From an archaeon (GTDB lineage Archaea > Nanobdellota > Nanobdellia > CSSed11-243R1): a stretch of 64,000 nt of DNA. The position numbers were made by a program, and so were the translations under genes. Within the stretch, counting starts at the first letter, position 1. Every line of letters starts with the position of its first letter. The notes below the pieces were generated by a model, which saw only the letters and a list, made by a program, of their open reading frames with translations, did no database searches and was not told the origin of the DNA. Where the stretch lies: positions 1,645 through 65,644 of the forward strand of contig JAJRVP010000015.1 of assembly GCA_024277205.1 (NCBI GenBank), read 5' to 3'. Positions 1,041 to 63,860 of this stretch are shown piece by piece.

Positions 1041-2438
1041 TTACTCCAAAATTAATTTATCAACTATATACTCAGCTTCACCAGTATAAGATGATGGACC
1101 GAATCTAATAATATTTCTCAATTCATCTTTAATCCTCTCTGGAATAACAAGATTATCAACAAATTTTAATAATTCCTCTATGGTTACTTTTCTTCCTCTT
1201 GTTAACTCTTTTAATCCTTCATATGCGCCAATATACCCTTCTCGTCTCAGGATTGTTTGTATTGGTTCTGCAAGTACTTCTGGATGTTCTTCAATGCATT
1301 TTTGCAAATAATCATAATTGGGTTCGATTCTGCTTAATCCTTTTAATGTGTTTTTCCATGCAATAAGCGTATGTCCAAATGCCTCTCCCATTGCTCTTAA
1401 CATAGTTGAGCCAGATAAATCTCTTTGCATTCTAGTAGTTGGCAATTCACTTAATGCTTCAAATATTGCATTTGCAATTCTTATATTCCCTTCGCTATTC
1501 TCAAAATTAATCGGGTTAACTTTGTGTGGCATTGTTGAAGAACCCACTTCTTCTTTTTTCTTTTTTTGTACGAGATAATCATAACTAATGTAAAGCCACA
1601 TATCTAAATCAAGTTTTTTAATTATTGTATTTGTCTCTTTTATTAAATTAAATAACTCAGAATATTCTGTATACCCATCTACTTGTGTTGTTACTAATTT
1701 TGGTTCCAATCCAATTGCTTCTAAAAATTTAACAGAAAATTCAACACCATCTATTATAGGATACGCTGCTACAAGAGCACTGTAATTACCAGTAGCCCCA
1801 TTTAACTTTGCTGGAATTTGGAATTTTTGTAATTTTTCTAATTTTCTGGAAAGTTCATTTGCAAAAACTGCAAATTCTTTACCAAGTGTTGTTGGAGATG
1901 CTGGTTGTCCATGTGTTCTTGCAAGCATTGGTAAATCAGCATATCTATGTGCATAGTCTCCTAATTTTTCAACAATTCTTTTTAACTGAAGTGCAAAGAT
2001 TGTTTGCATTGCTGTATTTAACATACTAGCATATGCAATGTTTGTACAATCCTCTGAAGTTAAAGCAAAATGTACACTTTCTACAACATCTTCTAAAGAA
2101 GCATTCTCTATATTTTCTTTAATAAAATATTCTACTGCTTTTACATCATGATTAATTTTAGAATCTATTTCTTTTATTTTTTTCATAGAATTTAAATCAA
2201 AGTTAAGATAAAGTTGCCTGAGATATTCTTTTTCTTCTTTAGTAAACTCTCTAACATGGGTTATGTCTGGGTGCTCTGATAAAAATATTAAATAATTTAC
2301 TTCCATCCAAACTCTACGCTGTTGTAAACCATATTCTGAAAAGTAATCTCTTAATTCTTTTGTATCTTTAGCATATCTCCCATCAACAGAACTTACTGCA
2401 GTAAAAGAATTCAACAGAAGTTCGTCCATCGTATCCAC
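1041..2438 (-). CDS. purB: adenylosuccinate lyase
   Basis: 465 aa. Fumarate-lyase superfamily signature region (SSxMPHKxN-like GSSTMPHKVNP). Length and context match PurB. Confidence 0.85.
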   Translation of the reverse strand: MDTMDELLLNSFTAVSSVDGRYAKDTKELRDYFSEYGLQQRRVWMEVNYLIFLSEHPDITHVREFTKEEKEYLRQLYLNFDLNSMKKIKEIDSKINHDVKAVEYFIKENIENASLEDVVESVHFALTSEDCTNIAYASMLNTAMQTIFALQLKRIVEKLGDYAHRYADLPMLARTHGQPASPTTLGKEFAVFANELSRKLEKLQKFQIPAKLNGATGNYSALVAAYPIIDGVEFSVKFLEAIGLEPKLVTTQVDGYTEYSELFNLIKETNTIIKKLDLDMWLYISYDYLVQKKKKEEVGSSTMPHKVNPINFENSEGNIRIANAIFEALSELPTTRMQRDLSGSTMLRAMGEAFGHTLIAWKNTLKGLSRIEPNYDYLQKCIEEHPEVLAEPIQTILRREGYIGAYEGLKELTRGRKVTIEELLKFVDNLVIPERIKDELRNIIRFGPSSYTGEAEYIVDKLILE

Positions 2439-3176
2439 CTAAAACCTTCTTACTAGTTCCAACATTTGTTCATATCCTACTTTTGCTTTTTTAACATCTC
2501 CTGTATCTCTATAAACTTGTTTGTCAATCATGTGCTCTTCTATCCCGCCTGGCCATACTCTCCAAGAATCATTTGTTAATTCATCTGCCAGAACTATTTG
2601 TCCATCAGATGTTATTCCGAATTCTACTTTGTAATCTACAAGAGTTGCACCAACATTTTCAAAGGCATCTCTTAGTATTTTGAAGGCCTTTATAGTAATC
2701 CCGTGAATTATCTTATACTGCTCATTTGTTAAAAGCCCTCCAGCAACTGCAAGACTCTTATTTATTGGTGGGTCGTGCTCTGCATCATTTTTGAAATGAG
2801 TTTCAAAAGTTACGTATGGTAATTGCTCTCCTTTTTTGAAAAATGGAAATCTCCTAACTAAAGAACCATATGCAATTTGCCTTGATATGCACTCCAAAGG
2901 AATCATGTCAACTTTTCTAACAAGCTGAGTATTTTCATCTATTTGTTCTACAAAATGAGTTGGTACTCCATGCCTATTTAGGCATCTCATAACTAAACTT
3001 GAAGTCTCACAATTTATTGCACCTTTTCCTTTCATCACATCATGTTTTGCACCATCACCAGCTGTTATATCATCCTTAAAGTATAACAGAGAAAGTTGTG
3101 GATTTTCTGGATGTGCATAAACAGTTTTTGTTTTTCCTTCAGCAATAATCTCCAATTGGCTTAAATCCCATTTCAT
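2439..3176 (-). CDS. purC: phosphoribosylaminoimidazole-succinocarboxamide (SAICAR) synthetase
   Basis: 245 aa with the EGKTK motif and SAICAR synthase-like organisation. Start is adjacent to the purB stop (2438/2439), consistent with an operon. Confidence 0.85.
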   Translation of the reverse strand: MKWDLSQLEIIAEGKTKTVYAHPENPQLSLLYFKDDITAGDGAKHDVMKGKGAINCETSSLVMRCLNRHGVPTHFVEQIDENTQLVRKVDMIPLECISRQIAYGSLVRRFPFFKKGEQLPYVTFETHFKNDAEHDPPINKSLAVAGGLLTNEQYKIIHGITIKAFKILRDAFENVGATLVDYKVEFGITSDGQIVLADELTNDSWRVWPGGIEEHMIDKQVYRDTGDVKKAKVGYEQMLELVRRF

Positions 3177-23450: not shown

Positions 23451-23526
23451 TGGGGTTGGCAGGATTTGAACCTGCGACCTTCGGCGCCCGAGGCCGACGC
23501 TCTAATCCAAACTAAGCTACAACCCC
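23451..23526 (-). tRNA. tRNA-Pro (anticodon CGG)
   Basis: 76-nt cloverleaf on the minus strand: acceptor GGGGUUG/CAACCCC, U8, D-stem GCUU/GAGC, anticodon stem UCGGC/GCCGA with loop CUCGGGC (G37), T-arm GCAGG-UUCAAAU-CCUGC, A73. No encoded CCA. Confidence 0.8.
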
Positions 23527-23570
23527 GCAACCTTTCTTTAAAAAGAAAGCGTATCCAATGAAAAAGATTT

Positions 23571-33685: not shown

Positions 33686-33697
33686 AGCCTCGGGTGG
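33686..33697. repeat. att-like direct repeat (right copy, inside tRNA-Thr 3' end)
   Basis: Exact 12-mer AGCCTCGGGTGG. Confidence 0.5.
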
Positions 33698-33806
33698 GAT
33701 TTGCACCCACGACCTTCGCCTCTTTGCAACCTTTTCTTTGGTTGAGCTTTCTTTTCCAAAGAAAGGTCATACCAAGGCGACGCGCTACTAGCTACGCCAC
33801 CGAGGC
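33686..33806 (-). tRNA. tRNA-Thr (anticodon GGU) with about 47-nt intron in the anticodon loop
   Basis: Acceptor GCCUCGG/CCGAGGC, U8, D-stem GCGU/GCGC, anticodon stem UCGCC/GGCGA, T-arm GUGGG-UGCAAAU-CCCAC, U73 (archaeal Thr identity). Exon junctions give loop UUGGUA|A. The exact splice sites cannot be fixed by eye. Confidence 0.55.
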
Positions 33807-36071: not shown

Positions 36072-37273
36072 TTAAAATCAAAAATTCTTTTTTGATTCAA
36101 CATTTTACTTTTCTTCTTATATCCTTCAATTGAAATTTTTAATTTTGAATTAATATAACTTAGTGCATCTTGCAGAGTTTGAAATTTCTTTGGACATGAT
36201 TTCATTGCATTTCTTGCATTTTCTCTAACTTGCCAAACACCAAGTGGAACAATATATCCTTCAGAAATCTCTCTAAAAACAATTACTCTTGCTTGCTTTT
36301 TCATTTTGTCCAAAGCTTCGCAAACAGCAAATCTTGCAGCATAATATCCACCACCTTCTTTGTCTGCATATGTTTTTCTTCCTTCGAATGGCTCATATTC
36401 TTCAAGAATAAAAGTTTCTTTAGCATCTTTTGCCCAAGAAGAACCAGGCGCCCATGCTTCGAAATTTTCATATTCCCATTTTCCAGGCATTAAAAGAATT
36501 ATAAAGTGATTATCAAGATATTTTGATTCATAAATAAAGTAGGAATCTATTTGCTTGTATTCGCGAATTCTTTTCATCATCTCTTTTGCAAGAATGTCAT
36601 CAACTGCTGTAATGCTCCATCTTGTTGGAACAAGTTTTTGATTTTTATATTGTCCGAGGGCACCACTTGTGAAAATATTTGTTATATAATAAATATCAAA
36701 ATTTTTGTAAAGAACATTTACTTGCTCAACAGCTTTTAATTCGTCATCAACAATTTTATCAACTTTTTGAGGTATCTTTGGATTTTCAACAATTTTCATT
36801 TTTTCAATTGGTGCTGAGGGGCCCATTGGCTGAGTAATGTCTGAGAAACTTATTTTGTAACTTGGCTTTTTTGCAAATTTTAAATCAACATCTGTTGGCT
36901 TTTTTGACATTGCCAGAAGCTGATTTTCTTCAACAAACCTATTTTTTGATTTAACATTTTGAATTGATTTCGAACGAATAGTCAAAGAACGCATCTCTAT
37001 TATTTTGCTGTATTCCATACCAAACCATTTATTTGGAGAATCAACTAAATTCTCATTTTCAACAGCGCCAATTGGTCCAACAAAAACATTTGGATAATTT
37101 GAATGTCCAACAAAAACAGAGGTAGATGGACCAGAAAATTCTTTTCCAATTTCTAACTTTGGCTTAACATTAAATTTAGCAAGAAGTGGGCAGGGATTAT
37201 TCCCACACAAATGTTTTCCACCCTTACATATAACACAAAGATTTGCAGAAGATACCATTTTAATTAAAATCAT
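36068..37273 (-). CDS. Nre-family (COG1602-like) archaeal DNA-repair-associated protein with N-terminal zinc ribbon
   Basis: 401 aa. The N-terminal motif is CVICKGGKHLCGNNPCP (C-x2-C-x5-C-x4-C-P). Confidence 0.4.
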   Translation of the reverse strand: MILIKMVSSANLCVICKGGKHLCGNNPCPLLAKFNVKPKLEIGKEFSGPSTSVFVGHSNYPNVFVGPIGAVENENLVDSPNKWFGMEYSKIIEMRSLTIRSKSIQNVKSKNRFVEENQLLAMSKKPTDVDLKFAKKPSYKISFSDITQPMGPSAPIEKMKIVENPKIPQKVDKIVDDELKAVEQVNVLYKNFDIYYITNIFTSGALGQYKNQKLVPTRWSITAVDDILAKEMMKRIREYKQIDSYFIYESKYLDNHFIILLMPGKWEYENFEAWAPGSSWAKDAKETFILEEYEPFEGRKTYADKEGGGYYAARFAVCEALDKMKKQARVIVFREISEGYIVPLGVWQVRENARNAMKSCPKKFQTLQDALSYINSKLKISIEGYKKKSKMLNQKRIFDFN

Positions 37274-37291
37274 TCTTGGTGCAGCTTCTTC

Positions 37292-37885
37292 TTAAGAAGG
37301 TGCATCCAGTAATTCCTTTATTGCTTCAACAGGCTTAGTGATTGCTTCCTCATAAGTTGCTGTTGTATTATCAAATAAGATATCATAAATGCTTTTATCA
37401 TTAATATCAATGCCATAAAGTTCTTTATATCTTTGGGCATCAGCATTATCTCTCTCTTCAATCCTTATTTTTGCTTCCTCCTCAGAAATATTTTCTCTCT
37501 TAGCAACTCTTTTTATTCTAACATCCTCTTCGCAATCAACCCAAAGTTTTATATCAGCATTATCTCCCGCAACCCAACCAGTTAATCTTCCAACCAAAAT
37601 AATTTTACCTTGTTTTGCCAATTCAATTGTTTTCTTATCAAGAAGTATGTCTGTATCTTCATTTCTGGTTTTTGAAAATTCTTCAATTGTTATGCCTTTT
37701 TCTTTTGCAAATTCTCTAAATATATCACCCATGCTCTTTAATTCTAGATTAAATGCTTTTGAAATTGCTTTTGCAACAGTTGATTTTCCAGAACCAGAAA
37801 GCCCAGAAACTGTAATTGTTATTCCTTCTTTTTTAATTTCTAATTGTTTTTCAAATTCTTTTAATTTCTCAATATAAGTTCCCAT
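37292..37885 (-). CDS. cmk: cytidylate kinase (archaeal type)
   Basis: 197 aa. The P-loop is ITVSGLSGSGKSTVAKAI. Family and length match archaeal CMP kinases. Confidence 0.65.
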   Translation of the reverse strand: MGTYIEKLKEFEKQLEIKKEGITITVSGLSGSGKSTVAKAISKAFNLELKSMGDIFREFAKEKGITIEEFSKTRNEDTDILLDKKTIELAKQGKIILVGRLTGWVAGDNADIKLWVDCEEDVRIKRVAKRENISEEEAKIRIEERDNADAQRYKELYGIDINDKSIYDILFDNTTATYEEAITKPVEAIKELLDAPS

Positions 37886-41067: not shown

Positions 41068-41104
41068 AATACTCTAAGAAAATATACGTTAATAAAATTA
41101 TGGA

Positions 41105-41373
41105 TGCGGGGGAGGAGATTTTCACCAACCCTTTCTTTTGGTCGAGCTTTTCTTTTTAAGAAAAGGTCGTTTTGAACTCCCGCAGGGATTGGTCACCAAA
41201 GCGCCAAAGGGCACATTAGCTCTAACCCACCAGGTATCCACGACCCCTTCTTTTGGTCGAGCTTTTCTTCCAAAGAAAAGGTCGCCTAAGCCTGGCCCGT
41301 TTGACCGTACCGTGCTCTTTCTTTCCCGAGGGTTTCTTTCTCACGAGAAAGAAGAGCTCTCCGGCACCCCCGC
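41105..41373 (-). tRNA. tRNA-Leu (anticodon UAG), class II, with at least three introns (D-loop, anticodon loop, T-loop region)
   Basis: Acceptor GCGGGGG/CCCCCGC with A73. D-arm CCG-GAGCGGUCAAA-CGG appears after removing a 50-nt D-loop intron. Anticodon stem CCAGG/CCUGG with loop CUUAGG|A. T-stem GGGAG/CUCCU is split by an intron after UUCAAAA. A 48-nt stretch in the variable region is unresolved. Confidence 0.45.
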
Positions 41374-45423: not shown

Positions 45424-45601
45424 TGCTCCCACCGGGATTTGAACTCCCGCAACCTTTCCTTTCTTTTGGTGCAGCTTTTCTTTTTGAAAGAAAAGGTGTC
45501 CCGGGTCATCGGCTTTCTCCAGATTTCTTTGGTGCAACTTTCTTTTTAAAGAAAGGTGCTTCGAGAGGCCGACATCCTTGACCGGACTAGACTATGGGAG
45601 C
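45424..45601 (-). tRNA. tRNA-Glu (anticodon CUC) with two introns (anticodon loop and T-arm 53/54)
   Basis: Acceptor GCUCCCA/UGGGAGC with A73. Anticodon stem UCGGC/GCCGA with loop CUCUCGA. T-stem CCGGG/CCCGG is interrupted before UUCAAAU by a 55-nt intron. Overall pattern matches archaeal tRNA-Glu. Confidence 0.5.
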
Positions 45602-45693
45602 GTCCAGTTCTTCCGCCAGCGCTTCTTTTTAAGAAGGGCTGATGGGAGCACAATAAGAAAATAATATAAATATATTAAAAGCTTTACTAATGT

Positions 45694-57193: not shown

Positions 57194-59854
57194 ATGTACC
57201 ACTCTCTTTCAATTAAAGAAACCTTAGAAAAATTAAAAACTTCATCGAATGGACTATCTGAAGAAGAAGCTAAAAAGAGAATAAAACAATATGGTGCTAA
57301 TGAATTAATAAAAAGAAAGAAAATCAGTTTATTAAAAATAATCCTCAATCAGTTTAAAGATGTCTTTGTTGGATTACTTATTTTTGCAGTTATTGTTTCA
57401 GTTTTATTTGGGGATACTACAGAAACAATTATGATTGGAGTTATTATAATTCTAAATGCTTCAATAGGTGCATTCCAAGAATATAAAGCAGAAAGAGCAT
57501 TAGAGGCATTGAAAAAATATATGTCTCCCAAGGCAAAAGTCATTAGAAATAACAAATTAAAAGTGATTGATGCCAAATTCTTAGTTCCTGGTGATATAGT
57601 TGTAATCGAAGAAGGAGATAGAGTTCCAGCAGATGGACGATTAATCAAAGTTTCAGAATTGGAAATTGATGAATCAATCTTAACAGGGGAATCCACCCCT
57701 GTTAAAAAAAATGTTTCTAAAGTAGGTATCAAAACAATTGTTCCAGAAAGAAAAAACATGGTTTATAGTGGAACATATGTAACAAAAGGAAGGGGAATTT
57801 TTGTCGTTTCATCAACAGGGCAAACTACTCAAGTGGGTAAAATCGCAAAGATGACATATGAAATAAAAGAAGAGGTTTCTCCATTAAAAAGAAAATTATC
57901 AAAATTTGCAAAAAAATTGGCGATTGGGATTGCAGTAATAACCATGTTAATATTTTTAGCAGAAACCTGGCGGGCACTGCAAGCTGGAAATTTAACCACA
58001 TTTAACATCACTAGTTTTTTTATGATAAGTATTGCATTAGCAGTATCTGCAGTTCCAGAGGGGCTTCCAGCAGTAGTTACTATATCCTTAGCACTTGGCG
58101 CAAAGGAGATGGTAAAAAAGAAGGCATTAATAAGAAAACTCTCATCTGTTGAAACCCTTGGTTCTGTAGATATTCTTTGTGTTGATAAAACAGGAACCCT
58201 AACAAAAAATGAAATGACAATAACTAAAATATACACAAATGGAAGAAGAATAGAAGTAAGTGGGATAGGCTATAAACCTCATGGCAAATTTCTTTACAAA
58301 GGAAAAGAATACAAAGGCAAGGACTTAGAAAAACTACTTTTAGCAGGAGCATTAGCAAATAATGCCAAATTAGTAGAAGAAGGGGGTTGGAAGATTATTG
58401 GAGACCCAACAGAAGGTGCATTAATTGTTGCTGCCAAAAAGTATGGCCTTAATTATGAATATCCTGAAGTGATAGAATTTCCTTTTAGTTCAGAGCTAAG
58501 AATGATGTCAACAATAAATAAAATTAATGGAAAAGAATTTATGTTCTCAAAAGGAGCTGTAGAAACCATTCTTGAAAAATGCTCTAAAATTCTTAAAAAT
58601 GGGATGGAACTTCCCATTACAAAAAAAGATAGAGAAAGAGTATTAACTGTTACTGAAAAATTTGCTCATGAAGCTCTTAGGGTTCTTGCAATAGCATACA
58701 AAAAAGGAGATTCTCATAAAGAAGAGAATTTAACCTTTCTTGGACTTGTTGGAATGATTGATCCACCAAGAGAAGAAACTTTTAGTGCTTTTAAGAAGTG
58801 TGAAAATGCTGGTGTAAAAACAATTATGATTACTGGAGACCACAAAATTACAGCAATGGCAATTGCAAAAAAAATTGGAATTCTAAAAAAAGGAAAGGTA
58901 ATTACGGGCGAAGAATTAAAAACAATCAAAGAAGAGGAATTAGCAGAGATTATAGAAGAAATAGATGTTTTTGCAAGAGTGCTTCCAGAGCAAAAACTAA
59001 AAATTGTAAGGGCTTTGAAAAAGAAAGGACATATTGTTGGTATGACTGGGGATGGAGTTAATGATGCTCCAGCTTTAAAAGAAGCTGACATTGGAATTGC
59101 TGTAAATTCTGGAACTGATGTTGCAAAAGAGGCAAGCGACTTAATCTTATTGGACGACAACTATGCAACAATTGTGGCTGCTATTGAAAAAGGAAGAGAA
59201 ATATATGCTAATATCCGCAAATTTTCATTTTTCCTTTTAAGAAGTAATTTTGATGGAATTGCGGTAGTAGGAACTTCAGCATTAATAGGAATCCCTATCC
59301 CTTTTACAGCTTCCATGATTCTTTGGACTAATGTGGCAACAGACGGAGGGCCTGCAATTTCATTAGCAGTTGATCCCCCATCAGATAATCTTATGAATCG
59401 TCCACCAAGAAAAATCAGTGAGGGTTTGCTTGATGGGTACTGGTTCATGATTATTGCTTCTTTTCTTTCTCAATATCTCTCCTCCTTAGGTGTTTTCTTA
59501 TTTGGACTATATACAACTGGAAATCTTGCTGTTGCAAGAACAATGGCTTTTGCGCAAGCAACTTTGAGAGAAATGGTGGTTGTGTGGAATTGTAGAAGTG
59601 AGAAAAAGGGAATATTCAGATTAAACCCATTATCAAACAAATATCTCCTATTAACTGTGGCCTTGTCAGTAATTGGGACAATTTTAATAGCAATAACACC
59701 ATATTTTGCCAAATTTTTTGGTGGTGCTGCATTAACTCTTAATCAATTATCCATTTCTGCGGGTGTTGCAATGCTTGGTGTGTTAATTATGCCAGAATGG
59801 TTTTATGGAAAAAAACTACCAAACCCATTAAAATGGTTTAAAAGATTAAGATAA
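57194..59854 (+). CDS. P-type cation-transporting ATPase (type II, Ca2+-ATPase-like)
   Basis: 886 aa. Phosphorylation motif [13 protein letters not shown] motif and hinge [12 protein letters not shown] are all present. Confidence 0.85.
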
Positions 59855-61711
59855 TCTTTTCTTTAATTCCCCTGCAACAATTTCGCCGTCGATTCTTCCG
59901 CGCACTTTTCTCATTACAAATCCCATAAGAACACTAAATTGTTTTTCTTTTGCAAGCTTTTCATTTTCAGAAATAATTTTATCAATTATTTTTCTTAGTT
60001 CGTGGATTGATATTTTTTGAAGCTTTAGTTTTTTCATAACTTGTTCAGCAGTCATTTGTGGCTTTGCCGCTAAATGAGCAAGAATTTCAACAATTGCCTC
60101 TTTTGCTATTTTTCCTTTATTTAACAATTCAAAAGTTTCCTCAAAATGGTGCTTTTTAATTGAGGAAGTATCAAGTCCATATCTCCTTCTTATCTCATCC
60201 TTTGTTGAGACAAGGCTTGATGCAATAATTGTAGGCGAGATGTTTTTAAATTTCTTGACAAGCTCTTCAAATGTAATTAATCCCTCACTATGAAGAATTT
60301 GATTTGCTAAATCTTCAGAAAGCCCCCATCTTTTAAATTTCTTTAATCTATTTTCTGGCTTTTCAGGAATTTTTATCTTTTTCAACAATTCTTTTGAAAC
60401 AGGAACAGGGATTTCATCTGTCTCTGGATACATCCTTGCAGCACCAGGCATTGGACGAAGAAATCTTGTTGTACAATCTTCGCTTACATCTCTAACATCT
60501 TTTGGAACTCCTTTGATATATTGCTCACACCTATCAATTAAAAATGAAAGTGCTTTTTCTGCAAATTCCTTTTCTGCAATTACAAAGGCAAACGCATCCT
60601 CATTTTTGCAATTCAAAAATTTCTTAATTTGAAAAACTTCGTTTTCAGAAATTCCATAATTTGGAAGTTCGTCAGAATGGATAAATCCGCGAATTCCAGT
60701 AAAGTGTTTAACATATTCAACTAAGTCGCGGGCAAGATGTTTTTCTCCTTGAAGTTTTTTCTTTAGAATTGTTGAAAATCCAGAAAGTTTTACAGCAATT
60801 AGATCGTCTTCTCTTTCAATTGCTTTCTTGATAAGATTTGATTCTGTTTTCTCAAAAATTTTCTTTATGTCATAAAATTTCTTTTTTAGTTTTGCTTTTC
60901 TTTGCTTAAGCTTTTTTGAAATTACAATTAATTTTTGCTGTCTTTCAATTTCAAAATCAATTATTTTTGGAATTTCCCTTAAATCTTGCACACCTTTTAT
61001 TTCAACTCTTGTTCCACCTTTAATAGAAACATTTATGTCCTGGCGAATCGTACCAATTCCTCTTTTTACTTTTCCAGTCATTCTCATTAATAAACCAATT
61101 CTTTCTGCTGCATCTTTCGCCATTTGTGGTGTGAAAATATCTGGTTCTGTTCTTAATTCAACAAGGGGAATTCCTAATCTATCGAGCCTAAAAGTAACTG
61201 AATTTGTGGTTTCGCTTATTCTTCTCGCAGAATCTTCTTCAAGAGCAATCATATTAACTCGGACTCTTCCATCTTTAGTTTCTATATAACCATCTTCTGC
61301 AATTAATGCTGTTCTTTGAAATCCAGAAGTATTTGAACCATCTATAACAGTTTTTCTCATTATTTGAATTTCATCAAAAGGTTTCATGTTAAGCAAAAGT
61401 GCAATTTGAAGTCCAATGATTAATGCTTCCTCATTTAGCTTGTGTGGTGGCTCTTCATCCAATTCAACCAAGCAAGTTGTATCATTGTAACCTTGATAAA
61501 TAAACGTTCTTTCTCTTTGTTGTTCTGAAATCGCAGCAATATCTGTTCTTCCCAATTCTCCAGCCACTGCTTTTAATTTTCGCTTAATTTCAAAATTAGG
61601 TTTATCATCTCTTAAACTAGAAGGACAACTACAAAAAAGCTTATGAGTATCAAGCTGCTGATGAATTTCAAGCCCGCATTTCAAGCCAATTTTTTTATAA
61701 TCCATAATCAC
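59846..61711 (-). CDS. gatE: Glu-tRNA(Gln) amidotransferase subunit E
   Basis: 621 aa. N-terminus MDYKKIGLKCGLEIHQQLDTHKLFCSCPS is the GatE signature. Confidence 0.85.
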   Translation of the reverse strand: MIMDYKKIGLKCGLEIHQQLDTHKLFCSCPSSLRDDKPNFEIKRKLKAVAGELGRTDIAAISEQQRERTFIYQGYNDTTCLVELDEEPPHKLNEEALIIGLQIALLLNMKPFDEIQIMRKTVIDGSNTSGFQRTALIAEDGYIETKDGRVRVNMIALEEDSARRISETTNSVTFRLDRLGIPLVELRTEPDIFTPQMAKDAAERIGLLMRMTGKVKRGIGTIRQDINVSIKGGTRVEIKGVQDLREIPKIIDFEIERQQKLIVISKKLKQRKAKLKKKFYDIKKIFEKTESNLIKKAIEREDDLIAVKLSGFSTILKKKLQGEKHLARDLVEYVKHFTGIRGFIHSDELPNYGISENEVFQIKKFLNCKNEDAFAFVIAEKEFAEKALSFLIDRCEQYIKGVPKDVRDVSEDCTTRFLRPMPGAARMYPETDEIPVPVSKELLKKIKIPEKPENRLKKFKRWGLSEDLANQILHSEGLITFEELVKKFKNISPTIIASSLVSTKDEIRRRYGLDTSSIKKHHFEETFELLNKGKIAKEAIVEILAHLAAKPQMTAEQVMKKLKLQKISIHELRKIIDKIISENEKLAKEKQFSVLMGFVMRKVRGRIDGEIVAGELKKRLS

Positions 61712-62985
61712 ACCAAAAATACTTTTGGACTTAATGAGGGATTTATCTCTCCAGTCATGTTTTTCTTCATTAATTCCTTAACCTTATCCAACTTCTTTGT
61801 TTTTCCCAAAACATGCATAAGTTTTACATAAGCAACTTCTGGAAGCATATCCTCGCAAAAAATTGCACCAGTGTTTTCTAATTTTCTAAGATTAGAATAA
61901 ACAAATTCATGTGTTCTTCCATAAAGACATTGAGATGTTATGCAAACAGCAATTCCTTTTTTAATAGCACTTCTTATTTTCAGAATCAAGGAATCCTTTC
62001 CTGTTGTAGGTATATGTCCAAGCCCTGTTCCCATTAAAATAATACCATGATATCTTTGCTTGATGTAATAATCAATTATTTTTGGATTCATTCCAGGATA
62101 GATGTAAACAAGTGCAACTTTCTTGTCAATTTTTGTATCTAATTCATTTTTTCCATCTAGTTTTTTATAATCAATTAAAATTTCTATTCTTCCATCTGGA
62201 AAAACTTTTGCAATTGGAAATTGATTTATAGAACGAAAAGCATCTCTCCTGCTCGTGTGCATCTTTCTTACTTTTGTTCCACGATGTAAATAGCAGAAGT
62301 CATCATTTGGAGTCGCATGCATACAAACCATAACTTCCCCAATCCTTTGAGTTGCAGCAATCACAGAACAAATTAGATTCATAAAAGTGTCGCTACTTCC
62401 TCTGTCAGTTGAACGCTGCGCACCAACCAAGACAATTGGTTTTGAAAGCTTTGGAAACATAAATGAAAGCATAGCAGCTGTGTAATGAAGAGTATCTGTG
62501 CCATGTGTTATAACAACTCCAGAAACATCTTTTTTGTTCAATTCTTTGTAAACTTCTTTTGCAAGTTTAACCCAATCATCTGGATTAACATCCTCACTCA
62601 TTATCTGTAATACTTGTTTTGCTCTTATGTTTGCAAATTTCAAAATTTTTGGCTCAAGCTCTACAAAATCTTCTGCAGTTAAAGAAGCATAAGTTCCACC
62701 AGTAGTATAGTCAACTTTTGAAGAAATTGTTCCGCCTGTTGAAAGAATAGAAACTGTTGGAAGTTTTTTATTTTGTTTTATCTTTTTTCTCCTTGCTTTT
62801 TTCTTTTTTGCTTTCTTGATTACTTTTATTTTTTTAATATTTTTTTTGTCAATCCCAATGTTATAACCAGAATTAAGTTTGATAACAATTGTGTTGCTCT
62901 TTAAAATTTCTGGCTTTGGCATTAAAATTCCTTTATAGGTTTTGTTTTTTGTAATTACTTCTACTAAATCTCCTGGTTTAGCCAT
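61708..62985 (-). CDS. gatD: Glu-tRNA(Gln) amidotransferase subunit D (asparaginase-like)
   Basis: 425 aa. The asparaginase fold TGGTI motif is present. Overlaps gatE by 4 nt. Confidence 0.85.
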   Translation of the reverse strand: MAKPGDLVEVITKNKTYKGILMPKPEILKSNTIVIKLNSGYNIGIDKKNIKKIKVIKKAKKKKARRKKIKQNKKLPTVSILSTGGTISSKVDYTTGGTYASLTAEDFVELEPKILKFANIRAKQVLQIMSEDVNPDDWVKLAKEVYKELNKKDVSGVVITHGTDTLHYTAAMLSFMFPKLSKPIVLVGAQRSTDRGSSDTFMNLICSVIAATQRIGEVMVCMHATPNDDFCYLHRGTKVRKMHTSRRDAFRSINQFPIAKVFPDGRIEILIDYKKLDGKNELDTKIDKKVALVYIYPGMNPKIIDYYIKQRYHGIILMGTGLGHIPTTGKDSLILKIRSAIKKGIAVCITSQCLYGRTHEFVYSNLRKLENTGAIFCEDMLPEVAYVKLMHVLGKTKKLDKVKELMKKNMTGEINPSLSPKVFLV

Positions 62986-62993
62986 ACAAAAAT

Positions 62994-63196
62994 AAAAGAA
63001 AGAGCAGTTTATTAATTTAGTCCTTTAACATTTTCTTTTAGTGCAGGTTTTCTTTCTAAAAGAAAAAGTGCAAAGAAAGAGCAGTTTATTAATTTAGTCC
63101 TTTAACATTTTCTTTTAGTGCAGGTTTTCTTTCTAAAAGAAAAAGTGCAAAGAAAGAGCAGTTTATTAATTTAGTCCTTTAACATTTTCTTTTAGT
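62994..63196. repeat. 77-bp tandem direct repeat, 2.6 copies, each with an 11-bp-stem hairpin and TATA-like box
   Basis: Unit caaagaaagagcagtttattaatttagtcctttaacattttcttttagtgcaggttttctttctaaaagaaaaagtg is repeated at about 62994, 63071 and 63148 (partial). It contains ttttcttttag/ctaaaagaaaa as an inverted repeat. Confidence 0.7.
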
Positions 63197-63473
63197 CTTT
63201 TAATAAGAATTCTTGAGGATTCCTAAACATATATCTTATTCTTCCCATTGGAGTAAGACGCCTATATATTTCAATAGATGTACTTTGTCCAACTCCTTCA
63301 GAAACTACGGGTTTCTCAACATAGTCATCTAACGCACTTCTACCTAATGCACTTCTAACTACTTCATTAGCTCTCATACCTTTTAAAACTGCATCAATTG
63401 GTATTGGTTCTTCTGGTTGATAAGGAGTTGTAGGAAATTCCACTCCTCTTTTTATATATTCATTTCCACTCAT
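63192..63473 (-). CDS. hypothetical small protein
   Basis: 93 aa. Stop codon lies inside the third repeat copy. Confidence 0.25.
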   Translation of the reverse strand: MSGNEYIKRGVEFPTTPYQPEEPIPIDAVLKGMRANEVVRSALGRSALDDYVEKPVVSEGVGQSTSIEIYRRLTPMGRIRYMFRNPQEFLLKD

Positions 63474-63497
63474 TTTTTATTTCACCTCTTGGTAGTT

Positions 63498-63860
63498 TCA
63501 GTTTGATGATTTATCGGCTTTATAAAGCTTTTGGTCTATTGTTGGGAGATATTTCCCTATCTCGTGACACATCTCCAACAAGTAGGGTTCCAAATCAGCA
63601 TTTGGGTTGGAATTAGGAACTTGTAATATTCCATTTATGCCAATCATCTCAAAAGATTTTTCAGTCAAATTTCTATATTCTGGTTTTACAGTTATTATTC
63701 TTATTTGACCTGGAAACTGTTCATCAGCTATTCTCTCAAGAGTAGATTTAATAACTCTTGCTGCTTTTAATGGACCTAACATCTCTGCAGCGTCAAGAAA
63801 ATAATCACTATGTAGCTCCTTTTCAAATCTTATATATGCAATTATGTCAATTGCTTCCAT
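63498..63860 (-). CDS. hypothetical protein
   Basis: 120 aa. Confidence 0.25.
   Translation of the reverse strand: MEAIDIIAYIRFEKELHSDYFLDAAEMLGPLKAARVIKSTLERIADEQFPGQIRIITVKPEYRNLTEKSFEMIGINGILQVPNSNPNADLEPYLLEMCHEIGKYLPTIDQKLYKADKSSN

Follow-up and report, generated by a model that had tools for sequence, protein, structure and literature searches.

Introns of similar sequence have spread among unrelated tRNA genes in the Thermoproteales by a mechanism that is described as unknown but presumed to act at the DNA level, and snapshots of insertion have been wanted (PMC4090602, PMC4033280). As summarized in these reviews, Fujishima et al. 2010 described the process as "large-scale intron transposition". 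Outside tRNA and rRNA, bulge-helix-bulge (BHB) introns are known only from the cbf5 pre-mRNA of Crenarchaeota and from a 46-nt intron in the 5' untranslated region of HVO_1309 of Haloferax (PMC7714728). Disrupted tRNA genes that prediction misses have been pointed out in DPANN lineages (PMC5829648). Here, we analyze a tandem array that lies upstream of gatDE in a 64,000-nt stretch of contig JAJRVP010000015.1 from a member of the Nanobdellota (assembly GCA_024277205.1), which we refer to as the window. Profile and pairwise comparisons show that the hairpin part of this array is homologous to introns in the organism's own tRNA genes. We slightly favor the view that the array itself arose by recent amplification of the gatDE promoter region together with this hairpin.

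The intron family described here resembles that of the Thermoproteales in that a single family of ~45 to 55 nt occupies canonical and noncanonical sites, here in tRNA-Thr, tRNA-Glu, and tRNA-Leu and in further tRNA genes of relatives. It differs in its host group, the Nanoarchaeota (DPANN), and in that members also sit beside the promoters and stop codons of protein genes, which is not in the reviews (PMC4090602, PMC4033280). Like the HVO_1309 intron, the gatD element is a short intron-type element in the noncoding leader region of a protein gene; however, the cbf5 and HVO_1309 introns have a verified BHB that is cut by EndA, whereas the gatD element forms no convincing BHB with its flanks. 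In the open-access full-text literature, we found no report of family members in intergenic DNA near promoters.

Structure of the tandem array upstream of gatD

The array is 202 bp long in minus-strand orientation, with a period of 77, 2.62 copies, 100% matches, no indels, and a score of 404, and it is the sole long-period array that Tandem Repeats Finder detected in the window. It occupies the spacer between a 93-aa open reading frame (ORF; stop codon at 63194..63192) and gatD (ATG at 62985), both of which are on the minus strand. An initial annotation of this DNA had described near-perfect 77-bp copies that abut the gatD start codon and overlap the upstream stop. The placement was borne out, as the TAA falls within the final bases of the array, and the copies proved to be fully identical rather than merely near-perfect. 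Read on the gene strand, two modules alternate in the order A1-B1-A2-B2-A3, followed by TATTTTTGT-ATG. Module A (47 nt) contains relic codons of the upstream ORF, a TATA box, and a T-rich spacer, while module B (30 nt; GCACTTTTTCTTTTAGAAAGAAAACCTGCA) forms a hairpin element together with the 13 nt that follow it. There are three exact copies of A and two of B; thus, "triplicated" is accurate for the TATA-bearing part of the unit but not for the hairpin core, which is duplicated. A check for further copies of the unit found no match to A or B elsewhere in the window (at most 3 mismatches; chance expectation, 0.00). The hexamer ACTAAA occurs at the end of the upstream ORF and twice in every unit, and the left boundary of the array lies within this shared sequence. 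The main parts of the array are as follows.

62995..63196, minus strand: whole tandem array, A1-B1-A2-B2-A3
62995..63041, minus strand: module A3, the proximal copy, CTAAAAGAAAATGTTAAAGGACTAAATTAATAAACTGCTCTTTCTTT; conserved in relatives and holding the predicted working gatD promoter
63029..63071, minus strand: element copy 2, made of B2 and the 13 nt that open A3, GCACTTTTTCTTTTAGAAAGAAAACCTGCACTAAAAGAAAATG
63106..63148, minus strand: element copy 1, made of B1 and the 13 nt that open A2; same sequence as copy 2
63183..63195, minus strand: orphan X'' segment, CTAAAAGAAAATG, which starts A1 and adjoins the stop codon of the upstream ORF

The 43-nt element is built from X (TTTTCTTTTAG), a 3-nt loop, X' (AAAGAAAA), the linker CCTGCA, and X'' (CTAAAAGAAAA), and GCAC flanks the stem on both sides as part of the conserved element. 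The two sequence motifs quoted in the initial annotation are both present: a TATA-like motif, GCAGTTTATTAATTTAG on the plus strand and CTAAATTAATAAACTGC on the gene strand, and an 11-bp inverted repeat, TTTTCTTTTAG/CTAAAAGAAAA, which is the X:X'' pairing of the element. To call the hairpin strong was an overstatement. The folding energy is -10.5 kcal/mol for the element (z = -2.2) and -7.9 kcal/mol for the 30-nt B core, and the stem is AU-rich with 1 G-C pair in 8, which makes it weak to moderate. The surrounding 241-nt region folds no better than its shuffled versions (z = -1.7 sense and -0.75 antisense). A terminator consisting of a stem plus a T run also found no support, with 0 terminator-like sites in 62800..63500 and a stem that is not G+C-rich; the scan that gave this count uses bacterial sigma-70 and terminator models and is uninformative for an archaeon.

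Several other identities for the array were considered. Rfam 15 gave no match at the gathering threshold over the array region; the matches under permissive settings were eukaryotic families (mostly microRNA precursors) and two cis-regulatory models, each scoring less than half the gathering score, and are ascribed to chance. An array like those of clustered regularly interspaced short palindromic repeats was rejected, since the B segments between the A copies share one sequence and are not unique spacers, and a C/D-box small RNA was rejected by eye, as neither strand has a TGATGA or CTGA box. A replication origin was considered briefly, and the repeat is unlike origin recognition box elements. 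Scans of viral contigs with two element patterns returned 0 matches, which gives no sign of a viral origin.

Homology of the array hairpin to tRNA introns

A nucleotide profile was built with nhmmer from six tRNA introns of the window alone and run over the window and 27 further loci (283.6 kb in total). The best matches outside the training set were the two gatD units (20.4 bits; E = 1e-4). They were followed by the first hairpin, B1, of the corresponding gatD locus in metagenome-assembled genome (MAG) AUK188, which we refer to as L001 (16.7 bits; E = 0.0015), and then by a hairpin in the tRNA-Pro 5' leader. Sixty shuffles of the window that preserved its dinucleotides gave scores of at most 11.8 bits. 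An ungapped alignment of the gatD unit to intron 2 of tRNA-Glu matches at 34 of 39 positions (E = 0.006), which equals the closeness of the introns to one another. A further ~120 kb from close relatives was added via NreA homologues and then searched with the intron profile, and the family was found in many tRNA genes of these relatives, flanked by D-loop, anticodon-loop, and T-loop sequences. Among these, a T-loop intron in locus L030 has the gatD-type frame GCACTTTCTCTCTTTGAAAAGAGAGAACCTGCGCTAAGAGAGAAAC (GCACT...ACCTGCRCTAA), with covarying X, X', and X''. Across the family, the X:X' stem is perfectly paired (G-U allowed) in all 24 members, which have nine different stem sequences. Stems were extracted for each sequence separately; MAFFT misregistered the hairpins of the 24 members, and column-wise pair counts were not used. 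Collectively, these sequence comparisons show that the hairpin part of the gatD unit is homologous to the tRNA introns of this organism.

The introns themselves were located by a scan for hairpins made of a pyrimidine run and a purine run, which found similar elements at several other sites in the window, all on the minus strand. Three of these sites are tRNA genes.

33806..33686, minus strand: tRNA-Thr(GGU), found by Rfam, with a 50-nt insert in the anticodon loop; perfect cloverleaf after splicing by hand
45660..45425, minus strand: tRNA-Glu(CUC), with introns at 45561..45515 (position 37/38) and 45499..45444 (position ~53/54); perfect cloverleaf after splicing by hand
~41372..41100, minus strand: tRNA-Leu(UAG), with family inserts at 41358..41312, 41284..41236, and 41170..41120; called by ARAGORN after their removal

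The tRNA-Leu gene also has an unusually long variable-arm stretch, part of which was removed as well to recover the gene. The tRNA-Glu and tRNA-Leu genes were missed by both ARAGORN and Rfam; thus, half of the window's tRNA genes (2 of 4) are invisible to these tools because of family introns. The introns share an architecture of X (a pyrimidine run), a loop of 3 to 4 nt, X' (a purine run), a linker such as CTGCACC or CTCGACC, and X'' (a second purine run), and X can pair with either X' or X''. By our own reading, which a BHB scan checked for tRNA-Glu, X:X'' would be the intron-internal helix beside the splice-site bulge in tRNA-Glu intron 1 and in tRNA-Thr. A third insert near the 5' end of tRNA-Glu is possible, where a direct repeat of GCTCCCAT flanks 45641..45602. 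The leader hairpin of tRNA-Pro (gene at 23526..23451) is CTTTCTT-TTTA-AAGAAAG followed by GTTGC, at 23566..23527 on the minus strand; its resemblance to the intron family is to the 3' part (profile E = 0.008).

Outside tRNA genes, the family has few members, and we count five loci or copies: the gatD upstream region of the window, two in L001, the cmk/nreA junction, and a spacer between a DUF7121 gene and a tRNA gene. Those away from gatD are located as follows.

37303..37279, minus strand: copy at the cmk/nreA junction, GCACCTTCTTAAGAAGAAGCTGCAC, which has the cmk stop codon in its loop and precedes nreA
L030 17582..17620 (equivalent to L031 15990..16028): copy that lies 2 nt past the stop codon of a DUF7121 gene and immediately 5' of the TATA region of a tRNA gene that contains an intron

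The second hairpin of L001, B2, is nearly identical to the cmk/nreA copy, and together with the L030/L031 copy these form a CTTCTT subtype that was seen only outside tRNA genes. At three loci in as many genomes, its copies are nearly the same and vary only in the loop and in the stem base that adjoins it. Between cmk and nreA, relatives have two ORFs that are missing from the window, and the copy there therefore sits at a lineage-specific junction. By comparison with relatives, the true start of nreA is probably the second ATG, at 37258. All three copies of the CTTCTT subtype are in the sense of the upstream gene and end 5 to 25 nt before an AT-rich, TATA-like stretch. Separately from this family, a conserved G+C-rich hairpin, TCCTTCCT-CCCCC-AGGAAGGA, occurs at ~1700..1720 in L001 and at ~2260..2280 in a second relative (L003), apparently at the same locus.

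The family thus shows features of repetitive extragenic palindromic (REP) elements and miniature inverted-repeat transposable elements (MITEs), namely, dispersed copies at nonhomologous intergenic sites, in small numbers, and presence/absence polymorphism at orthologous sites. Like bacterial REP elements, bacterial interspersed mosaic elements (BIMEs), and MITE-like palindromes, its members are imperfectly palindromic units of 30 to 45 nt that are dispersed, follow stop codons, and are sometimes in tandem, and a conserved tetranucleotide, here GCAC, lies beside the stem. This is a resemblance only. Most copies of the family are tRNA introns, the non-tRNA copies are too few for a genome-wide repeat, and no RAYT/IS200-type transposase was found, although no search aimed at one was made.

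The position of the non-tRNA copies bears on what the hairpin might do. One alternative is an operator array, in which the dyad TTTTCTTT-N3-AAAGAAAA, with direct GCAC repeats 27 bp apart, would be the site of a dimeric regulator upstream of the TFB recognition element (BRE) and TATA box. That five non-tRNA copies end 5 to 25 nt upstream of AT-rich, TATA-like sequence and that the CTTCTT copies are so alike would fit such a site. However, the same family lies inside the D-, anticodon-, and T-loops of tRNA genes, where a promoter operator makes no sense, and the free covariation of the stem (nine variants) fits base pairing and not a protein that reads a fixed sequence; nor was a regulator identified. 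We regard this explanation as very improbable.

A second alternative is a cassette of terminator plus promoter, in which the hairpin and its T5CT4 tract would terminate or stabilize the 3' end of the upstream transcript and insulate gatDE, and the repeat would multiply this cassette. Archaeal RNA polymerase terminates at oligo-T, and on the sense strand after the upstream stop codon such tracts are present, as motifs, at 63067..63058 and 63144..63135 (T5CT4) and at 63002..62993 (T4AT5). Module B holds the first run of at least 5 T's after the ORF stop, and non-tRNA copies are found at the 3' ends of upstream genes, in the same orientation as those genes: 3 nt past the stop codon in L001, 2 nt past it in L030, and overlapping the cmk stop in the window. 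Nevertheless, the CTTCTT subtype elsewhere lacks an oligo-T run, the stems are weak, and no match to a stem with a T tail was found. The T4AT5 run in the spacer before gatD would itself be expected to stop read-through from upstream, and relatives that lack the element already have T4AT5 between the TATA box and the ATG, where it could terminate the upstream transcript. The cassette is thus a doubtful explanation.

Third, the elements could be substrates of the splicing endonuclease, forming a BHB in read-through or distal transcripts that would be cut by EndA and perhaps ligated by RtcB. The homology to genuine tRNA introns and the retained X:X'' helix are in favor of this, and HVO_1309 sets a precedent for a BHB intron in the leader of an mRNA (PMC7714728). 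Other observations speak against it. A strict hBHBh' scan recovered both tRNA-Glu introns, whereas the array gave only low-complexity matches of the slippage type, at the background rate of ~1 match per 33 nt (1913 per strand), which makes the scan too unspecific in such AT-rich sequence. Pairing the flanks by hand gave a 3-by-2 internal loop where a 3-nt bulge is needed and no geometry like that of the tRNA introns, and B1 of L001 has lost X''. The gatD elements are intergenic, with AT-rich flanks that are not tRNA-like, and interrupt no functional RNA or ORF. At the cmk/nreA junction, the ORFs are in frame across a single TAA, and the copy was considered as a 21-nt mRNA intron; this was rejected because both proteins, cytidylate kinase and NreA, are complete (Pfam, NCBIfam), so that the copy is not an ORF-fusing intron. 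We consider a role in splicing to be highly unlikely.

Promoter module and copy number among relatives

To place the TATA-like motif, we examined the 60 nt upstream of 64 nonoverlapping ORFs in the window. Eighteen have a GGTG-type site, and the other 46 were profiled for AT-only 8-mers with a TA step by offset from the ATG; this replaced a weight matrix that had converged on noise. Such 8-mers peak at -23, in 22 of the 46 ORFs without a Shine-Dalgarno sequence; at offsets farther than ~10 nt from it, the count falls to 1 to 6 of 46. Genes of the window thus seem usually to have a TATA box ~23 to 30 nt 5' of the start codon and, by implication, leaderless mRNAs. Genes inside operons, among them the 93-aa ORF and a 120-aa ORF upstream of gatD, are marked by GGTG sites. 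The promoter features of the array, with predicted starts for the two distal boxes, are as follows.

63008..63019, minus strand: proximal TATA-like box, TAAATTAATAAA, with its 3' end at -23 from the A of the gatD ATG
62986..63007, minus strand: T-rich spacer between the TATA box and the ATG, CTGCTCTTTCTTTTATTTTTGT; predicted initiation region
63085..63096, minus strand: second (distal) TATA copy; predicted start ~23 nt downstream at C63062, within the T5CT4 tract of B2
63162..63173, minus strand: third (most distal) TATA copy; predicted start at ~C63139, inside B1

Homologous gatD loci were compared from Nanoarchaeota MAGs AUK188 (L001; GatD 85% identical to that of the window) and AUK136 (L002; 81%), a Nanobdellati MAG (L003; 77%), and metagenome contigs L019/L038/L039 (79%), L036 (83%), L037 (79%), and L040 (75%). 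In the four aligned sequences (window, L001, L002, and L003), TTAATAAAC followed by TTCTTTTA.TTT...ATG is invariant. The same module is recognizable in L019, L036, L037, L038, and L040, and the TATA box is kept in 8 loci of related Nanoarchaeota. Thus, the AT-rich motif very probably is the gatDE TATA box. Since the proximal box ends at -23, the modal offset, a leaderless gatDE mRNA is predicted, and we infer that the proximal copy is its working promoter. The initial annotation had proposed multiple promoters, and there are indeed three promoter-like copies whose TATA box is supported by conservation and by the -23 register, but only the proximal one is placed for a leaderless mRNA. This arrangement shares with archaeal leaderless BRE/TATA core promoters an AT-rich 8- to 12-mer whose center lies ~26 to 27 nt before the start, purine-rich sequence directly 5' of the box, the lack of a Shine-Dalgarno sequence, and a start codon at or next to the transcription start, which is here predicted. 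It differs in having three exact tandem copies, one of them in register with the gene.

The initial annotation had suggested that copy number may vary between strains, and variation is borne out between related species, which have one, two, or three modules at these loci. The module is single in L002, L003, L019/L038/L039, L036, L037, and L040. In L001 there are two modules, which have diverged and each follow a GCAC-hairpin-CTGCAC element, in the order stop-ATT-B1-TAAAGGACTAAATTAATAAACCGCTTA-B2-CAAGAAAGACTAAATTAATAAACTGCTTATTCTTTTATTTTTGT-ATG, and the window has three. The two L001 modules are identical at 23 of 24 positions over GACTAAATTAATAAACYGCTTA. B1 of L001 differs from module B of the window at two loop positions only, and the arrangement of B plus promoter therefore predates the split of the two lineages. 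The intron-family element 5' of gatD is present in the window and in L001 and is absent from L002, L003, L019, and L036 to L040; no intron-family element was found at the gatD loci of L036 to L042.

These comparisons bear on a functional multi-promoter array, in which the three TATA copies would recruit TBP and TFB and amplification would raise or tune gatDE transcription under selection resembling that for gene dosage. Three exact copies of a conserved TATA module would suit such an array, and the near-identity of the two L001 modules over GACTAAATTAATAAACYGCTTA, though they are diverged elsewhere, hints at constraint on the second box. On the other hand, the distal boxes lie 77 and 154 nt further from the ATG than the proximal box and are out of register in a genome with tight leaderless spacing, and their predicted starts fall in a T5CT4 tract. 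Transcripts from them would have to cross T3CT3, T5CT4, and T4AT5 tracts, which normally stop archaeal RNA polymerase, and a single copy suffices at six loci of relatives. We therefore judge this alternative unlikely. The distal copies would start in the T5CT4 tract of the hairpin and would give either short RNAs that stop at the following T tract or leaders of 77 or 154 nt. Most likely, the two distal copies are neutral passengers or mild expression modifiers and not a designed regulatory device.

An assembly artifact is another explanation for the copy number. In this case, a loop in the de Bruijn graph would have made the copy number or the whole array, and the true number of units would differ. 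A period of 77 is a common k-mer size, the copies are perfectly identical in a metagenome-assembled contig, and the proteins of the contig (78,629 bp), the 93-aa product and GatD among them, are singletons in a collection of 15 billion proteins, which leaves no independent assembly for comparison. However, a loop at k = 77 needs a real repeat of at least 154 bp, so that at least two full periods must be real, and assemblers collapse repeats more often than they expand them. In addition, the separately assembled L001 shows its own two-unit form of the architecture, independent of that in the window and diverged, and duplication at this locus is therefore biological. The caveat of an assembly error stands for the exact copy number only, and we consider an artifact improbable.

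The genes around the array are as follows.

61708..62985, minus strand: gatD (425 aa), NCBIfam equivalog (E = 1.9e-166)
59846..61711, minus strand: gatE (621 aa), which overlaps the gatD stop codon, NCBIfam equivalog (E = 3.8e-239)
63192..63473, minus strand: upstream 93-aa ORF with a GGTG ribosome-binding site and no Pfam or NCBIfam match
63017..63031, 63094..63108, and 63171..63185, minus strand: relic of the end of the upstream ORF, ATG TTA AAG GAC TAA, one per unit

A small, fast-evolving ORF precedes gatD in L001, L002, L003, and L019, alignable at ~20% identity, and gene calls place a comparable small ORF 5' of gatD in L036 to L040. In the window, the ORF actually ends in TTA TTA AAA GAC TAA. 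L036 has the ancestral form, in which the ORF ends in ...AGA AAG GAC TAA ATTAATAAA and its TAA is the first TAA of TAAATTAATAAA; each window unit carries an MLKD-stop relic because a junction of the L036 type placed the stop codon of the ORF within the TATA element. While gatD and gatE overlap directly in the window, five related loci among L036 to L041 have an intervening ORF of 115 to 119 aa with no Pfam match. In metagenome contig L042, gatD (1332..2591) follows the ribosomal protein genes for S17, L14, and L26 without a small ORF, and the N terminus of its product matches RS4NT and not GatD_N, which suggests a different N-terminal domain, a fusion, or an annotation artifact.

Origin of the array and its significance

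We consider it somewhat probable, at roughly 55%, that the array arose by a young amplification, specific to this lineage, of the gatDE promoter region plus the intron-family hairpin, with extra copies that are probably neutral. The ancestor shared with MAG AUK188 would already have had an intron-family element beside its gatD TATA box. Unequal recombination or replication slippage, probably aided by the hairpin and by ACTAAA microhomology, may then have produced A-B-A-B-A, and because the window copies are perfectly identical, the last round of amplification is likely to have been recent. The array shares with promoter-multiplying tandem duplications of the variable-number tandem-repeat type its exact head-to-tail copies, its ACTAAA microhomology bounds, and a copy number that differs between genomes; it differs in that the unit is a composite of promoter, tail of the preceding ORF, and intron-family hairpin. 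We class the gatD array as a tandem duplication of a promoter whose unit includes an ectopic element of the tRNA intron family; apart from the intron link, its dynamics are ordinary.

Several points weigh against this account. Promoter use, start sites, and termination are all inferred from sequence. In L001, the B2 subtype differs from B1 though the adjoining TATA modules are nearly identical, so that simple duplication is insufficient there and independent insertion or conversion is needed. The period of 77 is the default k-mer of a widely used assembler, and the copy number may be mis-estimated. The extra copies may also have a function. As for the hairpin, the family is of low complexity (T/C and A/G runs) in an AT-rich genome, so its similarity to the introns may be partly convergent, and the E values are modest (1e-4 for the profile and 6e-3 for the pairwise comparison).

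A broader and more tentative proposal is that the intron family moves at the DNA level, into tRNA genes and into intergenic DNA after stop codons and upstream of TATA boxes, and that one such copy carried the gatD promoter into an array. The presence of one family both in tRNA genes and at polymorphic intergenic sites is what DNA-level mobility would predict, and is not predicted by a spread restricted to sites competent for splicing in RNA. If this possibility holds, the non-tRNA copies would be the missing "snapshots" of archaeal tRNA intron transposition, and they may act as portable promoter-proximal or 3'-end elements.

For annotation, the consequence is that family introns hide tRNA genes from ARAGORN and Rfam. 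For the biology of this lineage, the array shows that in a reduced DPANN genome the promoter region of even an essential operon for translation, gatDE, can change rapidly, with one, two, or three copies in close relatives. The link to tRNA introns was unexpected, and it yields concrete, testable loci at which to study how such introns spread.

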